A DNA stretch of 63,472 bases, filler included, from Clostridia bacterium (GTDB lineage: Bacteria; CBDUZB01; JAGLHV01), in NCBI GenBank assembly GCA_030637025.1. It is 6 parts of 6 records of this genome, joined end to end, with 100 filler letters (N's around TTAATTAATTAA, not from the genome) between each part and the next. Parts side by side here need not be neighbours in the genome. Positions count along the whole stretch, not along the records: positions 42,151 to 51,537 come from DAOVVV010000056.1; 5 more parts are not named here. One strand, given 5' to 3'. The translations under genes were made by a program, and so were the position numbers. Below, piece after piece: positions 15,915 to 53,935 of this stretch. The notes under the pieces were generated by a model. The model worked only from the letters and a program-made list of their open reading frames with translations. It did not search any database and had not been told where the DNA came from. Within the stretch, counting starts at the first letter, position 1. Each line of letters begins with the position of its first letter.

Positions 15915-16000
15915 CTTCGGCAACCCGGCTGTCCGCCATTACTTAGTGACGAACCCGTAGCTTTGCGTCCTATCCTTACGGATAGTTTGCCTTTATCAAA
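15915..16000 (-). ncRNA. c-di-GMP-I (GEMM) riboswitch
   Basis: GATAAAGGCAAAC-TATCC-GTAA-GGATAG-GACGCAAAGCTACGGG...ACAGCCGGGTTGCCGAA matches GEMM consensus; GNRA loop; G at the Vc2 G20-equivalent position. Confidence 0.92.
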
Positions 16001-45578: not shown

Positions 45579-48500
45579 TTAATGAGGTTTCTTGTATTGA
45601 TTAATTTCTTTTGGGGTAACTAATTGGTCGGTTAAACGGAACCATTCGGTAACCAGGAGTTTCAATTGTACCGAATAAGCAATTTTATTAAACCTGTTAT
45701 CTTCCTGTTTGTTGATTGCGGCAATCAAGTCATTAAGTGTTGCCTGTCCCAGTGTGTAGTTTCTTTGTTCATCTTTTAAGATGGATTGGGCTAGTTCAAT
45801 ACGCTCCTGGGCATTAGTTATAAGAGTTTTGGTTTTTTCTATCTGGTCATAAAGGTTAAGCAAATCAGTATAAAGGTTAATATGCTTGTTTTTTGAAGAT
45901 AATACTGCTTTTCTACGATTGACTTTGGATATTTCGTATGCCGCTTTTTCCTGTGTAGCTTTATAGGGAAACTCAAGAGAAATCATAGTATAAACAAAGC
46001 TGTCTTCATCAGTTATCCTGTATTCGGATCCATCCCGGGAATATCCAAAACTAAGATTTAAAGAAGGGAGTAAAGCGTTTTTATCTTTGCTCAATTCCAG
46101 GCCTGATTTTTTTTCCAATAATTCCAGTATTTTAGATGTACGGCTCTTTTCTTTAAATATCGCGTATTCTTTTTCAAAGGAGCGGGTTAACCCTTTGTAA
46201 AAGGAAGGATTTTTTTCGGGTAAAAATTCTGATTTATTTTTTTCTCCGACAGCCTGTTTAATCAGATTGTGCGTTTGGTCAAAATTGTCAGCAAGGGCGA
46301 TAACACGCTCTTTTTTGGCCAGCACTTGCAGTCGTATTTTATTTACATCAACAGCAAGGGCAATATTATTTTTCTCGCGTTTAAGCATATTATCCAGTTG
46401 TTTGAGGCTTTCCTGATAAGAAGCTTCTGCGGTTCCTAAGTTTTCATAAGCAAAGTACCAGTTATAATATAAGGTGATTAATCCAGCCAGATAATCTTCA
46501 TAAGCTTCAACAATTTGATGATTGGCTACAGTTTCTTCAATACCGGTTATTTTTTTAAGGTACCGGTTAGTTTTTCCAAAAGCATTTTCAGCCAGAGGCT
46601 GCGAAACCAAAACCGAAAAAGAGGAACTACTTTCTGTTGATGAAGGGTTTCCGGATAAATCATAGTCAATAGAAAGATTTGTGCCGATAGCAGGGAATAA
46701 TTTGCCCAGGGAGACACTGTTGGTAGGGCTGGTGGTAGAATCGCCGCTAATGATGGTATCATGCTGACTTTTCAGTGAGAATATCCAGTCTTTTACCGGG
46801 AGGGTTAAAAAACTTGTATAGGTAATGGCCAGTTGATCAATAAGAATTTCCTGAAAGGTAATATCGTTAGTGCAGACTCTGGTAACAAATTCAGGCAAAG
46901 GCAATACCTTAGGTTGGTCTGTTTCTTTCGCTTCAAGGAAAACGCTGCTGCAAAGAATTAATAACAAAAAAATAAATAAGTTTCGGGATACTAAAAATTT
47001 CTTTATGTATATTAACCTATGTTTTACATCCCTTACAAATCCATACAAACAGGGAATTAATAATAGAGTAATAAAAGTACTAAATAAAAGACCCCAGGAC
47101 ATAGCCAGCATCATATCCGCCAGCATGGCATCATATCCTGCTATACCGTATGCTGTGGGAAACAATCCGGCTACAGTGGTCAGGGTAGTAAGAATGACCG
47201 CCCGCAGTCTGGTTTTAGCAATGTGGGCAATTTGTTTATTGGATAATTCTCTATGTTGCCCCCGGTCATATTCCTTGTCCAGTTTAACCAGCATAATAAT
47301 AGAATCATTTACCACGACGCCGGCAAGGCCCAGTGCCCCTATAGCTGCGAAGTAGCCTATCAGGGTAATCCCATGTGCCCAGAATGCGAAAATTATGCCC
47401 ACTATTCCAAAAGGGATGGAAACCATAATCAGAAGAGGTTTAACCAGTGAGTCAAATAATAAAGAAAGAACAACATAAATGAGAAAAAGTACCATAAAAA
47501 TGGCTATTTTAAAATAGTTTTGCGATTCCCGTGTTTCTTTTACCTCGCCTTCAAAGACAATACCTGCAGTCGGATATTGGGAAATTATTTGCGGAAGGAC
47601 ATTTTTTTCAAAATGCTCGGCAACTTCAACAGGGGTTAGATCAGTGTTTTCACTTAAATCAGCATCAATAGTAGTGGTTCGTATATAATTTTTACGTGAA
47701 ATACTATTTGGGGAAATAATTTTTTTAATGTCAACGATATTTTTAAGAGGAACAAGATAATTGCTTTTATTTTCCACAGGAACATTAAGCACTTTTTTTA
47801 TGTCGTCTTTGGCCTCTTCAATCGCAGTCAAGCGGACCTTAATTTCTTCATCTTCGTGAAACACTTCATAAAGTACATTGCCCTCCAGCAGAGTCCGGAA
47901 GGTATTCTTAATGTTGGAGGGATTAATACCCAGACGTTTGATCAGTTTTCGCTTAAGGTCTACCTTATATTCAGGCCGTTTTAGAGGTCGATCAACCTCA
48001 ATATTATCCAGAGCGGAAAAGCCCTCCATACTTTCAACCATCATAGCTACTACTTTTTCCCGTACTTCGTCGTCATTTTCCTGAATAATTACTTCAATAG
48101 GACTTCCGCTGGCATGGCCAAACCGGTGTTTTTGAAAATCAAGTTTGGTAAAACCAGGAATCCCGGCCATTTTTTCCTTCCATTCCCCGATAAGTTGTTT
48201 GGATGATTTATCCCGTTTTTCTTTAGACACAAGCTCAATGCGCATCCGCATTTTATTTTCTTCTACAGCAGATCCGCGCCTGCTCCGGGCTATCTGTGTA
48301 CGAAAACCGATAACCTCTTTGCCAATATATTCAGAAAACATTTTTTCCAGTGGTTGTACCATCCGGGCAGTCTCATAGCGTTTTGTGTCCGGGTGGGCTT
48401 CACCGACAAGAGAGACCTGCATAGTTTCCTCCCTGGGAAACATCACAAACTTCATTTTTGTCATAAAAATAAATCCGGCAAAAACCATAAGTCCGATAAA

Positions 48501-50174
48501 TATCAGGAAAATAAGCAGTTTAAGTTTCAATATTTTTTCCATAATTTTGCCGTACACATCTTCAACAGAGTGAAACCAATGAATTTTTTTATTCTTTAAT
48601 TCCGGAATAGGTTTATTTTTTTTATAATATTTATCAATTAGAGGAAGCATTCCCAGGGAAAATACATTCCTGAGCCAGCGAGGTACCTGAATGTTCATAT
48701 GAGAAGGAAGAATAAAAATGGATTCAAAAAGACTCCCAGCTAACATAAGAAATATTATAGGTGGAATAACCTGGTTAAACTTGCCAAACCTTCCCGGAAA
48801 GAAAAACAGGGGTATGAAAGCGACACAGGTAGTAATAATGCTGGCAATAATAGGTAGAAGAACATAGGATGTTCCTCTTACCGTTGCCTCGTGGAAATTA
48901 ATACCTTGTGCTCTTAATCTGATAATATTTTCAGCAACCACTATGGCATCGTCAACAACCATACCCATAACTATTATTACCGCTGCCAGGGTAATATTAT
49001 TAATAGTAAAACCGAAAAGCGAAGAGAAAATCATAGCAAAACAGAAGGAAAAAGGTATACCCAGGGCTACGTATAGGCCTGATTTAAAATCAAGAAAAAT
49101 AAAAAGCATAATCAGTATGAATATAAATCCTATAGCTCCGTTAATTTGAACTATGGAAAGCCGGTTGCGGACAGTTATTGACTCATCATCTAAAGGGACT
49201 ATTTTTATATCACTGTTTTTAAGGGTACTGTCTGCGAAACTTTTTATTTTTTTATTAACCACATCGACACTTTCTAAAATACCAGAAGAACTGCTTTTTA
49301 CAACATTGAGGATAATACCTTCATGTCCGTTGATTTTAAGAATATTTTTATTTTTTTCATAAGCATAGCTAACATCGGCAAGCTGGTTAAGTCTTATTGT
49401 CTGGCCTTCAAATCCACCTTCAATAACAAGTTGACTAAGTTTTTTGGGGTCGTCCAGTTCTGCGGAAAGGGTTACTTTTGATTCTTCTTTATCTTCAATA
49501 CTGCCTGCCGGCTGGCGCACATTGTTGTTTTGGATTTCCTGCCGTACCTTATTAAATGAAATATTATAGTGCATAAGTTTTTCCGGATAAGCATGAATTT
49601 GAATTTCTTCATCAAGATATCCGCTTCTTCCTATTTCGCTTACCTGGGGAAGGGCTAACAGTTGGTTTTCCAATACGCGAACATAACTTTGCAGCTTTTT
49701 TCTTTGGTCATAATCTAAGAGATGTTGGGTGGTATCAAACAGGGCAATATCTATGATTGCTTTTTTAGAAGTTTTAAATTCTCTAATGCGCGGTTCATCT
49801 ATCACTTCATCTGGAAGTCGTACGTCCATTACCGCATTGCGGATTTCAATGATACACTCATCCCTGTCTGCGTAATTTTGTTCCAGCTGGACAGAAATAC
49901 TGGAGCTCCCTTCATTGGATGTGCTGGATATTTCATCAATCCCGTCAATTCCTTTAATCGCATCTTCTATGGGTTTGGTGATGAAATGTTCTACTTCGCT
50001 GGGAGAGGCACCGGGATAGTAAGCAGATATTCTTACAAAATCAAACTCCATATTGGGCAGTTCTTCTTTGGGTGTATGATGCCAGAAAAATACTCCCCCA
50101 ATCAGTATAGTAAGCATAATAAAGTTAACTAATAAATGCTTTTCGGAACAATATCTTATAATTTTTTCCCACAT
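45579..50174 (-). CDS. RND efflux permease fused to TolC-family outer membrane protein
   Basis: Residues 1-~1045 AcrB-like (YPGASP.EVE, GMVVDDAIVVAE, GVVVNDSI, RLRAVILTTLTT); residues ~1085-1531 OEP-like (LLPSLNLSFGY, YTLGQATLNDL). Confidence 0.88.
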   Translation of the reverse strand: MWEKIIRYCSEKHLLVNFIMLTILIGGVFFWHHTPKEELPNMEFDFVRISAYYPGASPSEVEHFITKPIEDAIKGIDGIDEISSTSNEGSSSISVQLEQNYADRDECIIEIRNAVMDVRLPDEVIDEPRIREFKTSKKAIIDIALFDTTQHLLDYDQRKKLQSYVRVLENQLLALPQVSEIGRSGYLDEEIQIHAYPEKLMHYNISFNKVRQEIQNNNVRQPAGSIEDKEESKVTLSAELDDPKKLSQLVIEGGFEGQTIRLNQLADVSYAYEKNKNILKINGHEGIILNVVKSSSSGILESVDVVNKKIKSFADSTLKNSDIKIVPLDDESITVRNRLSIVQINGAIGFIFILIMLFIFLDFKSGLYVALGIPFSFCFAMIFSSLFGFTINNITLAAVIIVMGMVVDDAIVVAENIIRLRAQGINFHEATVRGTSYVLLPIIASIITTCVAFIPLFFFPGRFGKFNQVIPPIIFLMLAGSLFESIFILPSHMNIQVPRWLRNVFSLGMLPLIDKYYKKNKPIPELKNKKIHWFHSVEDVYGKIMEKILKLKLLIFLIFIGLMVFAGFIFMTKMKFVMFPREETMQVSLVGEAHPDTKRYETARMVQPLEKMFSEYIGKEVIGFRTQIARSRRGSAVEENKMRMRIELVSKEKRDKSSKQLIGEWKEKMAGIPGFTKLDFQKHRFGHASGSPIEVIIQENDDEVREKVVAMMVESMEGFSALDNIEVDRPLKRPEYKVDLKRKLIKRLGINPSNIKNTFRTLLEGNVLYEVFHEDEEIKVRLTAIEEAKDDIKKVLNVPVENKSNYLVPLKNIVDIKKIISPNSISRKNYIRTTTIDADLSENTDLTPVEVAEHFEKNVLPQIISQYPTAGIVFEGEVKETRESQNYFKIAIFMVLFLIYVVLSLLFDSLVKPLLIMVSIPFGIVGIIFAFWAHGITLIGYFAAIGALGLAGVVVNDSIIMLVKLDKEYDRGQHRELSNKQIAHIAKTRLRAVILTTLTTVAGLFPTAYGIAGYDAMLADMMLAMSWGLLFSTFITLLLIPCLYGFVRDVKHRLIYIKKFLVSRNLFIFLLLILCSSVFLEAKETDQPKVLPLPEFVTRVCTNDITFQEILIDQLAITYTSFLTLPVKDWIFSLKSQHDTIISGDSTTSPTNSVSLGKLFPAIGTNLSIDYDLSGNPSSTESSSSFSVLVSQPLAENAFGKTNRYLKKITGIEETVANHQIVEAYEDYLAGLITLYYNWYFAYENLGTAEASYQESLKQLDNMLKREKNNIALAVDVNKIRLQVLAKKERVIALADNFDQTHNLIKQAVGEKNKSEFLPEKNPSFYKGLTRSFEKEYAIFKEKSRTSKILELLEKKSGLELSKDKNALLPSLNLSFGYSRDGSEYRITDEDSFVYTMISLEFPYKATQEKAAYEISKVNRRKAVLSSKNKHINLYTDLLNLYDQIEKTKTLITNAQERIELAQSILKDEQRNYTLGQATLNDLIAAINKQEDNRFNKIAYSVQLKLLVTEWFRLTDQLVTPKEINQYKKPH

Positions 50175-50816
50175 AACTAAATTTCCTTTTTACAAAAATT
50201 ATCCAAAAGCAGGAAGTCCTAATTCCGTTAAATCCCGTAGGCCAATTCAATTAGATATCCAACCTTTGGTGCAATAATAGTCAGCAATTTTCATCCTTTT
50301 ATTGGTTCTGACTAACGATTTCAGTTTTAATTATTTCTATGGTGTTTTTTTTCCTTTGTTCTGCCGGTATAAGAAATACATAATAATATTAAAAGCTTAG
50401 ACCCTTTTTTGATATTTTAAGAGTTCTTCATTATACTTATTTGCAAAAAAAATTACAAGCCGTAATTTCTGATAGTTAGTGTCAGACTTTATTCTGATTT
50501 TTATTATTTTACTTCTCTTTAATTTAGACAAAAAAATTAAAAAAAAGTTCCCTAAAAAAACATTTTGCTATATTAATGTTTTCTTTCAAGGAATTTGTGT
50601 TTAAAGGGATTTGTTTTTTGCATTTAAATAAACAGATATAAAAACTTAGATTTTGGAGAAATAGTAAACTTTTGGATATTCAGAAGCTTAAAAATGAATA
50701 TCTCAAAGGTGTGCACTTTTAATTCTTAAATAGACGGGTTTGGGGATAGTGTTGACTTATAATGTTGAATAATTTATAATATAAAACACAAAAATGGCAA
50801 TGGAGAAAAAGGAGCT

Positions 50817-51194
50817 ATGGTAATGTCTGATATGACCAAAGGGCAAATCGAGGCCCAGATTAGTGAAGCGATAATAAAGTTTGAAAAGGAATATATGGGT
50901 AGAGGACCTATGGAAACCAAGACCTATATCATAAAGGATATGGTTTTTGTTCGGCTTAAAGGTGTTCTTACGCCTGCTGAGGAACAATTAGCCAAGACTG
51001 CTGAAGGATCAGATCTGATAAAAAAGACACGCGTTCAATTATTAGAGGGTGCAAGACTTTTATTGGAGAATATTATTTCGGAGATCACAGGTTGTCAGAT
51101 AAAGAGCTTGCATACAGATATAAGCACAAAAACTGGAGAAAGAGTTATTATTTTTACATTAGACCGGAATTTAGAAGATAAATTAAAAACATAA
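50817..51194 (+). CDS. DUF2294 / MpsC family protein
   Basis: TKGQIEAQISEAIIKFEKEYMGRGP, LTPAE, HTDISTKTGERVIIFTL. Confidence 0.9.
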   Translation: MVMSDMTKGQIEAQISEAIIKFEKEYMGRGPMETKTYIIKDMVFVRLKGVLTPAEEQLAKTAEGSDLIKKTRVQLLEGARLLLENIISEITGCQIKSLHTDISTKTGERVIIFTLDRNLEDKLKT

Positions 51195-51202
51195 AAAAAT
51201 AG

Positions 51203-51396
51203 TTGACAATTTTTTTTTATTATTATAGAGTATAGTTAACAAAAATAATATTTGGAAGACTGAGACAAGGATCGGTATTAATTTTCTGGAAGTAATAATC
51301 GGATAGATTAGTGCTGGGAGTTGCAGAGTAAGCCAATGTCAATATCTTTTAGTTCTCTTAAAAGAGAGCGGGAGATGACGTTGGTTTTTTGTTTTT
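51203..51396 (+). promoter_or_regulatory. Promoter plus antiterminator/terminator leader
   Basis: TTGACA-N17-TAGAGT; long hairpin 51252-51336 overlapping terminator 51331-51386 with T-tract. Confidence 0.7.
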
Positions 51397-51501
51397 AATA
51401 GGTATTTTCACCCTGTTAGAAATAAGATGCCAAAGGCGACTGCTGATGCGCAAGCGCATCGGATTTCTAACGAGGTTCACCAAAAAAAGGAGGATGTTGT
51501 T

Positions 51502-51537
51502 ATGCAAGAAAAATATGTCGATAATTACCTCCGGATA
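51502..51537 (+). CDS. Start of an unknown gene (cut by contig end)
   Basis: AGGAGG RBS then MQEKYVDNYLRI. Confidence 0.45.
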
Positions 51538-51637: not shown

Positions 51638-52957
51638 GGCATCAGCAATTTTGACGGTGGTTACACCAGAATCGGCTATTTTACCGGTGGTTACATTTAA
51701 ATCGGCTATCTTCACAGTGGTTACATTTGAGTCTGCGATCTTGGCAGTGGTTACATTGGCATCTAATATTTTAGCCATATCAATAGCATCATTAGCAATC
51801 TCAAGACTTGTACCGTTATCTGTAAAATCTCCGGTATCTAAATATCTTGGTGTACCTGCTACTCCGGCTTTGACCAATTCGTCACTGCCGGCACTTTGAG
51901 CTACCCATTCAAATCTACTACCGGCATTATTCCAGGCCAGAACTTCCCCGTCTGCCGGGGCATCCAGCACATCTAACTTGGGTTCGGTAATTGCATTATC
52001 TGCAACTTTGGCCGTAGTTATATTAGCATCAGCTATTTTTGCGGTTGTAATATTGGCATCAGCAATTTTGACGGTGGTTACACCAGAATCGGCTATTTTA
52101 CCGGTGGTTACATTTAAATCGGCTATCTTGGCTGTGGTTACATTAGCATCTAATATTTTCACTGTAGTTACATTGGCGTCTGCGATCTTGGCAGTGGTTA
52201 TATTTGAATCTGCAATTTTAGCAGTGGTTACATTTGCATCCAATATTTTAGCCGTATCAATGGCATCATTAGCTATTTCAATACTCGTTCCATTATCTGT
52301 AAAATCACTTGTATCTAAATATCGGGGTGTACCGGCTACTCCGGCTTTGACCAATTCGTCACTTACCGAAACACTAGCCCATACAGGATTCGCTCCTGCT
52401 CCCTGGGTTTGTAAAACTTGACCTGAAACACCCACAGGAAGATTTACCCAATCTAAACTATTGTAATACAACAGCTCCCCCTGGGACGGACCACCACCAA
52501 AATTAACATCTGCTAAATCTCCCAAATCGGTACTGCTTCCGCTTAAATTATCTAATTCTACCCAGGTAACAGCATCTTCGTCACGATATTCCAATTTTCC
52601 TGTTGCGGGATTTACTCTAAAACCTGGTAAATTTGTATATCCATTAATAAACCAATACAAATAAGAACCATTGGCAATTGTAAGCATTTGAAAATAATTA
52701 TTAAGATCGCCGGATGGTTTAATATTAATAGATCCTTCATCATTAATAATATTTGCCTCCCCAGAATCGAGTTTCTGAAAAATAAGGTTATTTTCGTCTT
52801 GATCTTTTATAATAACCTGCGGAGAATCACCTACATTGTCATCCAATATAAAGTCTTTATCCGTTGTAGCAGAAAAAGTGTTAATTGAAAAAAAGTTTAA
52901 ACTCATAAAAGAAATTGTAATAATTAAAATACCTTTAAAAAATGATTTTTGTTTCAT
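51638..52957 (-). CDS. Secreted fibre-like repeat protein, 3' truncated
   Basis: GGAGG RBS, signal peptide, LGDLADV motif, many KIADANVTTA decamer repeats in a duplicated module. Confidence 0.8.
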
Positions 52958-53333: not shown

Positions 53334-53765
53334 TCAACAAAGAAAGACTTTAAGCTTTAAAAATAGGTCATCTGCTTCGGAAAAGAAAAAAGAAGGAAAA
53401 CATCTTGTACGATTTTGAACATTAACAATTTCTAATTTATTTAAATTTACAATTTTTGATCTTATACTATTAATTATTTTCTTCTTTTCAATAATAGCCC
53501 AAACAATAAAAACTTCGTCAAATTGAAAAGCATCATTTAAAAACAAATTATTGTAATTTTTTACAGGTTTATTGTTTTCATCCCGGATATCTAAATCCGG
53601 AAAGACCAGATAAAGAGGTAAAAATTGTATTTTTGCACGAAAACAAAAATCTTGTGTGTTGAGACCAAACAGAAATGATTTTTCATTAAAACAGGAAGCA
53701 TAAGTTTTACTGCTCCACATAAAAAAAACCAACAAAGCAAAAAGAATAAACTTGCTTTTTTTCAC
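53334..53765 (-). CDS. Hypothetical secreted protein
   Basis: GTG start, N-terminal signal-like segment, directly downstream of riboswitch terminator. Confidence 0.6.
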   Translation of the reverse strand: MKKSKFILFALLVFFMWSSKTYASCFNEKSFLFGLNTQDFCFRAKIQFLPLYLVFPDLDIRDENNKPVKNYNNLFLNDAFQFDEVFIVWAIIEKKKIINSIRSKIVNLNKLEIVNVQNRTRCFPSFFFSEADDLFLKLKVFLC

Positions 53766-53853: not shown

Positions 53854-53935
53854 CCCTGGCAACTCAGCCTCCCATAATAATTATGGGACCGTAGTTTTGT
53901 GCCCCCCGGTTTCCCGGGGTTTACCTTTATCAGAG
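53854..53935 (-). ncRNA. c-di-GMP-I (GEMM) riboswitch
   Basis: CTCTGATAAAGGTAAAC-CCCGG-GAAA-CCGGG-GGGCACAAAACTACGG...GGCTGAGTTGCCAGGG; covaries with the 15915 copy. Confidence 0.88.

Follow-up and report, generated by a model that had tools for sequence, protein, structure and literature searches.

In a 63,472-nucleotide stretch of DNA from a Clostridia bacterium (assembly GCA_030637025.1), which consists of six contigs joined by artificial N44-TTAATTAATTAA-N44 spacers and is called the window throughout, the contig at 42151-51537 (DAOVVV010000056.1) carries at its 3′ end the DUF2294 gene mpsC, followed by a leader RNA. We find that this leader is a conserved RNA family without an Rfam 15 match, occurring in at least eight phyla (by record titles Omnitrophota, anammox Planctomycetota, Elusimicrobiota, Actinomycetota, Nitrospirota, Spirochaetota and others). 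By analogy with hutP, whose gene order is the same, we propose that MpsC is probably an effector-sensing RNA-binding antiterminator which stabilises P1, the basal stem of the leader hairpin; we put the probability of this at roughly 0.55. Mechanisms in which a protein or ligand decides between an antiterminator and a terminator that exclude each other are textbook ones; what is new here is a leader RNA without an Rfam family and, judging by domain matches, a protein outside the known attenuation protein families.

The mpsC gene (50817-51194; this and the leader features below are on the plus strand) encodes a 125-amino-acid protein, the candidate trans-acting partner of the leader, which matches Pfam PF10057 over the entire profile (1-111 of 111; 142.3 bits against a cut-off of 23, E 7.9e-42). 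A promoter-like site for mpsC, by consensus match only, lies at 50752-50780 (TTGACT-N17-TATAAT, 11/12 consensus matches). The second promoter-like site, which the initial annotation had reported directly after the DUF2294 stop codon, is present at 51203-51231 (TTGACA-N17-TAGAGT, 10/12), beginning nine bases 3′ of that codon, and some 20 nucleotides (nt) beyond it starts the long hairpin with purine-rich internal loops that had been described with it (51251-51339). From the base upwards the window copy comprises P1 (UUGG 51252-51255 with CCAA 51333-51336), a symmetric AAG/AAG loop 1 (51256-51258 with 51330-51332), P2 (ACU 51259-51261 with AGU 51327-51329), a second purine-rich loop, P3 (CAA 51266-51268 with UUG 51321-51323), a G-G mismatch above P3 (G51269 opposite G51320) and an extended P4 (51272-51317). 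The CCAA at 51333-51336 is common to P1 and the 5′ arm of an intrinsic terminator (51333-51396), just as the initial annotation had it; the stem base of this terminator pairs, in the minimum-energy fold, CCAAUGUCA (51333-51341) with UGACGUUGG (51376-51384), and is completed by an inner stem (51350-51375) and a U6-G-U5 tract (51385-51396).

The minimum-energy fold of the RNA at 51235-51400 has the terminator closed and P1 open, with a folding energy of -47.2 kcal/mol compared to a shuffled mean of -30.1 (z -5.1); none of 200 shuffles folded equally well. A simple terminator scan of the region returned 0 sites, missing the leader terminator as well, because the loop and inner stem of the latter exceed the scan's rule of a 3-8 nt loop. 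The putative regulated gene starts at 51502 (51502-51537; AGGAGG at 51488-51493, ATG at 51502, encoding MQEKYVDNYLRI), and its open reading frame (ORF) ends after 12 codons at the contig joint. A small hairpin (GAUGCG-CAAG-CGCAUC, 51445-51460) lies between the terminator and this start codon.

Conservation was followed in an MpsC-first sample of 79 loci, one genome per species, by reading the 300 nt 3′ of each MpsC gene, where the consensus uUGGAAGACU-raG-GCAA-R-[hairpin]-G-UUGC-Ar-AGUAAGCCAACAU recurs. The pattern search first tried was too loose (2209 matches), and a stricter pattern with a pairing filter was used instead; an alignment of 42 seeds with MAFFT misaligned the variable J2/3, and gave way to a 16-sequence seed. 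From these 16 clean copies we built covariance model R1, R2 being a broader model. In the window and the 79 MpsC loci R1 has 81 matches at E≤1, of which 71 reach E≤1e-3; the window copy, at 37.8 bits (E 4.5e-7), scores below most of them because its P4 is some 30 nt longer and one of its P3 pairs is A-C. The conserved hairpin runs P1, purine-rich AAG/AAG loop, P2, second loop, P3, R-G mismatch and variable P4. In an 81-row alignment fitted to the model, 91.8% of cells are paired, compared to 81.7% in column shuffles, both sides change at 15 of 16 base pairs, and none of 500 shuffles attained a single one of these measures; when the partners are shifted 1-3 columns, pairing falls to 21-44%. RNAalifold, applied to a 71-row alignment, independently finds P2, P3 and P4 and, of P1, the two inner G-C pairs; 13 of the 14 pairs it predicts show compensatory changes. 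P1 is weak in its two outer pairs, which are unpaired in 28-31 of 80 rows.

This conservation contradicts the simplest alternative, that mpsC simply ends in an unusually long terminator, or in a structure arisen by chance, and that the hairpin regulates nothing. Such a reading draws on the position of the hairpin directly after the mpsC stop codon and on the simple scan, which called no other terminator in the region; but sequence and structure are kept across at least eight phyla with compensatory changes, the RNA is also present away from mpsC, and a promoter-like site stands between the mpsC stop codon and the hairpin, so that we give it practically no credence.

At gathering score the leader is matched by none of the 4227 models of Rfam 15, which include riboswitches and protein-binding leaders; the Rfam matches in the window at that score (two c-di-GMP-I-GGC riboswitches and one tRNA) all lie elsewhere. 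Permissive scans of the window copy and of the canonical copies from loci L017 and L033 gave at best 18.7 bits, against cut-offs of 40-100, in keeping with the initial annotation, which did not recognise the leader as a named RNA family. A search of the open full-text literature, outside which lay subscription-only papers and bioRxiv supplements, found neither a description of the leader RNA nor an RNA role for DUF2294/MpsC/YbcI.

The sharing of one strand by P1 and the terminator is a general property of the family. Taking as overlap a stem of at least 6 bp which ends at the T-run and begins inside the (A)GCCAAC of the P1 3′ strand, we found it, with the T-run, in 67 of 71 copies from the window and the 79 MpsC loci, and the terminator arm covaries with the P1 3′ strand (GCCGAC with GUCGGC, CCAAU with AUUGG). 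The leader thus joins a covarying, conserved, aptamer-like RNA to an expression platform, which is one hallmark of metabolite riboswitches as a class, the other being a fold that changes when a small ligand binds directly and without protein. Of the 54 first copies after MpsC, 48 have a -35/-10-like pair in the 90 nt 5′ of the RNA, where shuffles would give 7.0, and between the end of its -10 and the model start there is a median gap of 18 nt; this promoter-like site just 5′ of the RNA suggests that the RNA is the very 5′ end of its own transcript. Typically the next gene begins 30-150 nt 3′ of the U-tract; it has a Shine-Dalgarno sequence, and in the loci read no separate promoter was seen for it. 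Some loci carry complete leader and terminator units in tandem at a period of about 129 nt: two units each in L007 and L017, three in L035 (9325-9642, plus strand) and four in L036 (4342-4788, minus strand), with a further array, of three or four units, in L165 (1088-1405, minus strand). The L036 and L165 arrays precede a membrane protein of 220-230 amino acids which belongs to no known family.

A promoter-like site, a strong terminator and multi-copy arrays could also describe a stand-alone, trans-acting small RNA of some 130-150 nt, for which MpsC might be a chaperone or a sponge target, read-through into the next gene being incidental. We regard this as improbable. The tandem period is too short to leave room for separate promoters, the gene past the U-tract usually has a ribosome-binding sequence and no visible promoter, the functions of the downstream genes cohere (see below), and the P1-terminator overlap is conserved and covarying, which indicates a switch rather than a fixed 3′ end.

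If MpsC acts on this switch then RNA and gene should travel together, and to a large extent they do. R1 (E≤1) places the RNA on the same strand within 400 nt 3′ of MpsC in 61 of the 79 loci, or in 53 if only copies of at least 27 bits are counted; one further locus has too little downstream sequence to hold the RNA, and four more (L065, L072, L076 and L078) come from R2 run without filters, where all but L065 score just 17-24 bits. The initial annotation's expectation that the core would be conserved and covary beside other DUF2294 genes is borne out by these 61 loci and by the 15 of 16 pairs with changes on both sides. At L036 the four RNA copies are transcribed divergently from mpsC. Starting instead from the RNA, a 19-base pattern scan of metagenome contigs led to 80 loci, of which 51 reached the 37 bits to R2 needed to be counted (by our estimate the rest are chance matches; L128 was left out as a duplicate of L129). 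Among the 42 with more than 600 nt of upstream sequence, an MpsC gene ends no more than 300 nt before the RNA in 28, and lies 459-828 nt upstream in two others.

Counting by genome gives a similar picture, in samples where 32 candidates per genome were scored under strict filters and genome completeness was unknown, so that a zero means ‘not found’ rather than ‘absent’. In the phylum of G003 (Omnitrophota by record title) the RNA was found in 4 of 151 genomes and MpsC in the identical 4, and in the phylum of G311 (Elusimicrobia by record title) RNA and MpsC were both found in the same 5 of 151; the two are adjacent in all nine of these genomes. Excluding the genomes on which the samples were centred leaves 3/150 and 4/150 with zero discordant genomes. 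This co-occurrence, genome by genome, supports the earlier proposal of an undescribed attenuation leader tied to DUF2294. The small genomes G003-G005 have a single RNA copy directly after MpsC, while two Anammoxibacter genomes have six copies each. Across the loci the downstream gene varies and the upstream MpsC is constant.

The pairing also extends to divergent branches of the protein family. For seven MpsC genes of the G001 phylum (Anammoxibacter by title), 54-71% identical, the DNA 3′ of the gene was read by eye, and four are followed by clear leader variants, one by a possible variant and two by none. The clear variants (L222, L224, L226 and L227) have the form GGCAGAU(U/C)...(A/G)AUAGGCC and then a terminator; P2 covaries in them, loop 1 is altered, and P1 gains a C-G pair beside tandem G-A/A-G. 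The covariance models miss these variants, and therefore undercount the RNA.

The genes under the leader point to a common metabolic theme. The MpsC-first sample gave 58 distinct first ORFs 3′ of the RNA, and the RNA-first sample 46. In the former, 26 are GTP-dependent phosphoenolpyruvate (PEP) carboxykinases (PEPCK_GTP) of two types, both called ‘PEP carboxykinase (GTP)’ by NCBIfam; five are DUF4914 proteins, five PurC, three PurE, four divergent MpsC paralogues and two members of an unnamed 585-amino-acid family, with one each of a beta-carbonic anhydrase, a hexapeptide protein resembling gamma-carbonic anhydrase and an oxaloacetate decarboxylase (OAD) gamma chain, and assorted others. Half of the RNA-first set (23/46) is again PEPCK_GTP, with two DUF4914 proteins, two MpsC paralogues and one each of PurC, PurE and the 585-amino-acid family; 14 were left unclassified by our reference set, including a class I/II aminotransferase and an HMGL-like carboxyltransferase. 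By their sequence assignments, then, what these targets have in common is the PEP/oxaloacetate/aspartate node together with reactions which use or release CO2 or bicarbonate. Targets off this theme include cytochromes, a glycosyltransferase and the membrane protein, of 230 amino acids, behind four tandem copies. An MpsAB-type transporter was nowhere the first ORF 3′ of the RNA in the loci examined, the other genes of which were not screened.

In the window itself, the N-terminus MQEKYVDNYLRI resembles that of the second PEPCK_GTP type in relatives (MEEKHVELLKTK, MEERYVELLKTK), so that over the 12 codons compared the target can be assigned, weakly, to this type. No tblastn match to PEPCK, DUF4914, PurC, PurE or carbonic anhydrase references was found in the window, and the rest of the regulated gene is therefore not on its other contigs. 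One 1628-nt contig from the DNA reads extends about 950 nt beyond 51537.

Two of the target families may be PEPCK-like enzymes that have gone unrecognised. In profile comparisons with the P-loop core of PEPCK_GTP the 585-amino-acid family, which has no family assignment (genes under the leader at L060 4882-6636 and L070 4415-6178), gave a fair match (93.6%, E 2e-7) and DUF4914 (a gene under the leader at L024 3607-5481) a weak one (60.8%, E 8e-5); PDB sequence searches with both returned chance matches only. MpsC paralogues that have diverged to 31-41% identity with the conserved copy stand downstream of the leader or in its operon at L036 2180-2725, L038 1817-2167, L041 3593-3961, L067 1109-1675 and L105 623-973, and in genomes G084 (C2 71509-71844), G311 (C42 2930-3280) and G423 (C129 8784-9137). 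Many genomes would therefore have two copies, a conserved one that precedes the RNA and another that the RNA controls.

The MpsC protein belongs to a large family (1603 PF10057 clusters at 50% identity in the protein library) and matches no NCBIfam model. Its closest relatives are very similar, the best 120 of 6378 homologues being 80-93% identical with source names from several phyla. In a tree of 80 rows, 44 of 77 inner branches were left open and phylum labels were intermixed; the tree is therefore too poorly resolved to decide whether this identity across phyla reflects transfer of a cassette or constraint. Several contigs break inside mpsC, at window positions 50854-50899, where they overlap by just 32-45 nt or so and then continue into other MpsC-like N-termini; mpsC DNA is conserved enough to tangle metagenome assemblies, in keeping with the number of short MpsC contigs that the related loci include. 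Near-invariant charged residues of the protein are R29, R46, K69, R72, E55, D101 and E108.

AlphaFold2 modelled MpsC from 49 sequences with high confidence (predicted local distance difference test 94.6) as a helix, two strands, three helices and two strands. A PDB sequence search with MpsC gave nothing at E≤1 and an ESM Atlas search no usable match. With the model, no solved structure matched clearly: the best Foldseek matches were Bet3 (2j3w_B, E 0.012, TM 0.49), YslB (3njc_B, E 0.017) and H-NOX (4u99, E 0.029), and VIA gave a best Z of 6.8, with TRAPP (3cue_B) at 5.9, V4R (2oso_A) at 4.8 and YslB at 4.5, all in the noise band. The recurring Bet3/V4R/H-NOX/YslB group hints, as a lead only, that the modelled fold may be a small-molecule-binding one.

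The most serious alternative to MpsC acting as antiterminator is that the leader is a protein-independent ON riboswitch, for a metabolite or ion of the PEP/oxaloacetate/CO2 node or for purine nucleotides, and that MpsC is a related neighbour which, for example, binds or makes the same compound or shares the cassette. Much of what we have described would suit it: a compact aptamer-like hairpin whose conservation lies mainly in the internal loops and whose stems covary strongly, an expression platform overlapping P1 in 67 of 71 copies, and a metabolic theme common to the target genes. The loop-centred conservation and the tandem arrays of 2-4 complete units are typical of metabolite riboswitches too, and as such they count against an antiterminator protein, as do several other observations. 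At 12 of the 42 RNA-first loci there is no MpsC within about 1.2 kb upstream; genome G217 has an RNA-like match of 31.8 bits and no PF10057 match; of 151 genomes sampled in the G001 phylum, 12 were found to have an MpsC-family gene and three the RNA, although this low count is at least partly a limit of model sensitivity; and G158-G160, with more divergent MpsC, gave zero RNA matches. The protein offers little encouragement either, having an isoelectric point of 6.6 and a net charge of 0, with no known RNA-binding fold recognised by Foldseek or VIA in its model; and in Staphylococcus aureus, according to Fan et al. 2019 (PMC6689103), mpsC is dispensable, its deletion having no growth phenotype. 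In favour of the coupling, on the other hand, two of the five genomes that lack the RNA next to MpsC have a copy elsewhere, before PEPCK.

Even so, we consider the riboswitch, serious rival though it is, rather unlikely. A riboswitch requires no particular upstream gene, and yet at 61-65 of the 79 MpsC-first loci and 28 of the 42 RNA-first ones MpsC stands directly upstream, though the target varies; in each of two phyla sampled at 151 genomes, the genomes found with the RNA (4 in one, 5 in the other) are precisely those found with MpsC, none having the RNA by itself; and the leader fits no aptamer in Rfam. To our knowledge, no riboswitch class is tied to a specific upstream protein gene. We favour MpsC as the antiterminator because mpsC stands constantly upstream of the leader while the regulated gene varies, because sampled genomes hold both or neither, because the MpsC-RNA pairing persists in divergent branches, and because the gene order copies that of hutP-terminator-hutH and the RNA logic that of the RAT and its terminator. 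The constant position, the both-or-neither distribution and the pairing in divergent branches are not what is expected of a riboswitch with a bystander gene.

We therefore set out how MpsC, as an antiterminator, might work. The mpsC gene would be expressed from its own promoter, and a second promoter just after it would start a transcript whose first 60-90 nt or so fold into the conserved hairpin. By itself the RNA would form the terminator, using the 3′ strand of P1, and transcription would end before the target gene; termination is the likely default because P1 has only 4 bp and the terminator is much stronger. MpsC, probably loaded with an effector, would bind the conserved loops and clamp the weak P1, withholding the 5′ arm of the terminator, so that RNA polymerase might read into the target, most often GTP-PEPCK and elsewhere a PEPCK-like protein, PurC/PurE, a carbonic anhydrase, an OAD/pyruvate-carboxylase part, an aminotransferase or the second MpsC paralogue. 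Here we infer that MpsC contacts the RNA, that this binding turns expression on rather than off, since stabilising P1 and the loops should favour read-through, and that the signal relates to inorganic carbon or to the PEP/oxaloacetate node.

Such a mechanism has close relatives. In Bacillus subtilis, hutP-terminator-hutH is a case of a regulator gene next to its RNA operator, and the order there, as here, is regulator, terminator-containing RNA, regulated genes; HutP is a small, effector-loaded protein that binds nascent RNA and prevents termination, as we propose for MpsC. MpsC differs in matching PF10057 only, and not the HutP family, its leader in being a single hairpin with purine-rich loops and a consensus without UAG repeats, and the locus in having a separate promoter-like site between mpsC and leader. 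The ribonucleic antiterminator (RAT) of the BglG/SacY/LicT systems is, like our leader, an imperfect looped hairpin with a 3′ side that extends into the 5′ arm of a terminator, and in RAT systems the binding of protein stabilises the hairpin and leads to read-through. The overlap found in the leader makes this logic common to both, without making the leader a family member: MpsC has no CAT or PRD domain (Pfam finds only PF10057), the leader is twice as long with a different consensus, and there is no link to sugar or phosphotransferase system genes. The comparison with RAT and ANTAR antitermination drawn in the initial annotation thus stands for the RAT-type terminator overlap and falls for ANTAR, for MpsC has no ANTAR domain and the leader is one long hairpin rather than two tandem small hexaloop hairpins.

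The PyrR site (RF00515), TRAP and ANTAR leaders also have a hairpin with purine-rich internal loops adjoining a terminator, and in PyrR-type attenuators several sites per genome answer to one protein. PyrR, on binding, stabilises an anti-antiterminator and turns expression off; MpsC is of a different fold and family, and RF00515 scores only 18.2 bits (E 2.3) on the L033 copy, against a cut-off of 54, leaving the window copy unmatched. ON riboswitches, such as the Na+ and Li+ classes, resemble the leader in size, in the single hairpin with conserved internal loops, in the overlap of P1 with a terminator, in tandem copies and in their place at the very 5′ end of the transcript, but no Rfam 15 family convincingly reaches E 10 on three copies of the leader.

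The initial annotation had MpsC accompanying MpsAB-type bicarbonate uptake operons, which is too broad: Fan et al. 2019 (PMC6689103) have mpsC collocated with mpsAB only in staphylococci, and the first ORFs in our loci are mostly PEPCK. In S. aureus, by the same account, mpsC follows the genes of the MpsAB bicarbonate transporter after a weak terminator, whereas here it precedes a leader RNA and PEPCK-type genes. The two genes are of the same Pfam family, and in both settings the gene adjoins genes for the supply or use of inorganic carbon.

A wider proposal, which we hold only tentatively and think more likely to fail than to stand, is that MpsC/DUF2294 founds a new family of effector-sensing antiterminators reading inorganic-carbon status (CO2/bicarbonate, or a proxy at the oxaloacetate node) and switching on PEPCK, PurE/PurC, carbonic anhydrases and related carboxylation genes, in a unit which spreads across phyla as a cassette. 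This might also explain why mpsC stands beside the bicarbonate transporter genes of staphylococci.

Other features of the window include the two c-di-GMP-I-GGC riboswitch aptamers, both on the minus strand and above the Rfam gathering score, at 15915-16000 (72.5 bits) and 53854-53934 (62.3 bits); the latter is upstream, on that strand, of a 143-amino-acid ORF with a signal-like N-terminus (53334-53765). Also on the minus strand, 45579-50174 encodes a 1531-amino-acid protein which unites a complete AcrB-type RND pump (PF00873, E 3.5e-155) with a C-terminal outer-membrane-factor domain (PF02321, E 5.6e-20), an unusual fusion in a single chain. The gene at 51638-52957 (minus strand), cut by a contig joint, encodes a secreted-looking protein of more than 440 amino acids with repeated KI(A/L)D(A/S)NVTT(A/V)K units, which Pfam leaves unmatched.

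The leader is a well-supported RNA of poorly studied anaerobic phyla and, if it works as proposed, a new class of cis-regulatory RNA. If MpsC is its antiterminator, DUF2294/MpsC would acquire a testable function, where the literature searched, including the S. aureus study, offers only ‘dispensable for MpsAB’; and if MpsC binds RNA it would bring a new fold to the attenuation proteins. A compact 60-nt ON switch worked by a single small protein would also be usable as a genetic tool. PEPCK, two uncharacterised PEPCK-like families, aminoimidazole ribonucleotide (AIR) carboxylase and carbonic anhydrases would come under one switch, and this sharing would indicate how uncultivated anaerobes tune anaplerotic CO2 fixation.

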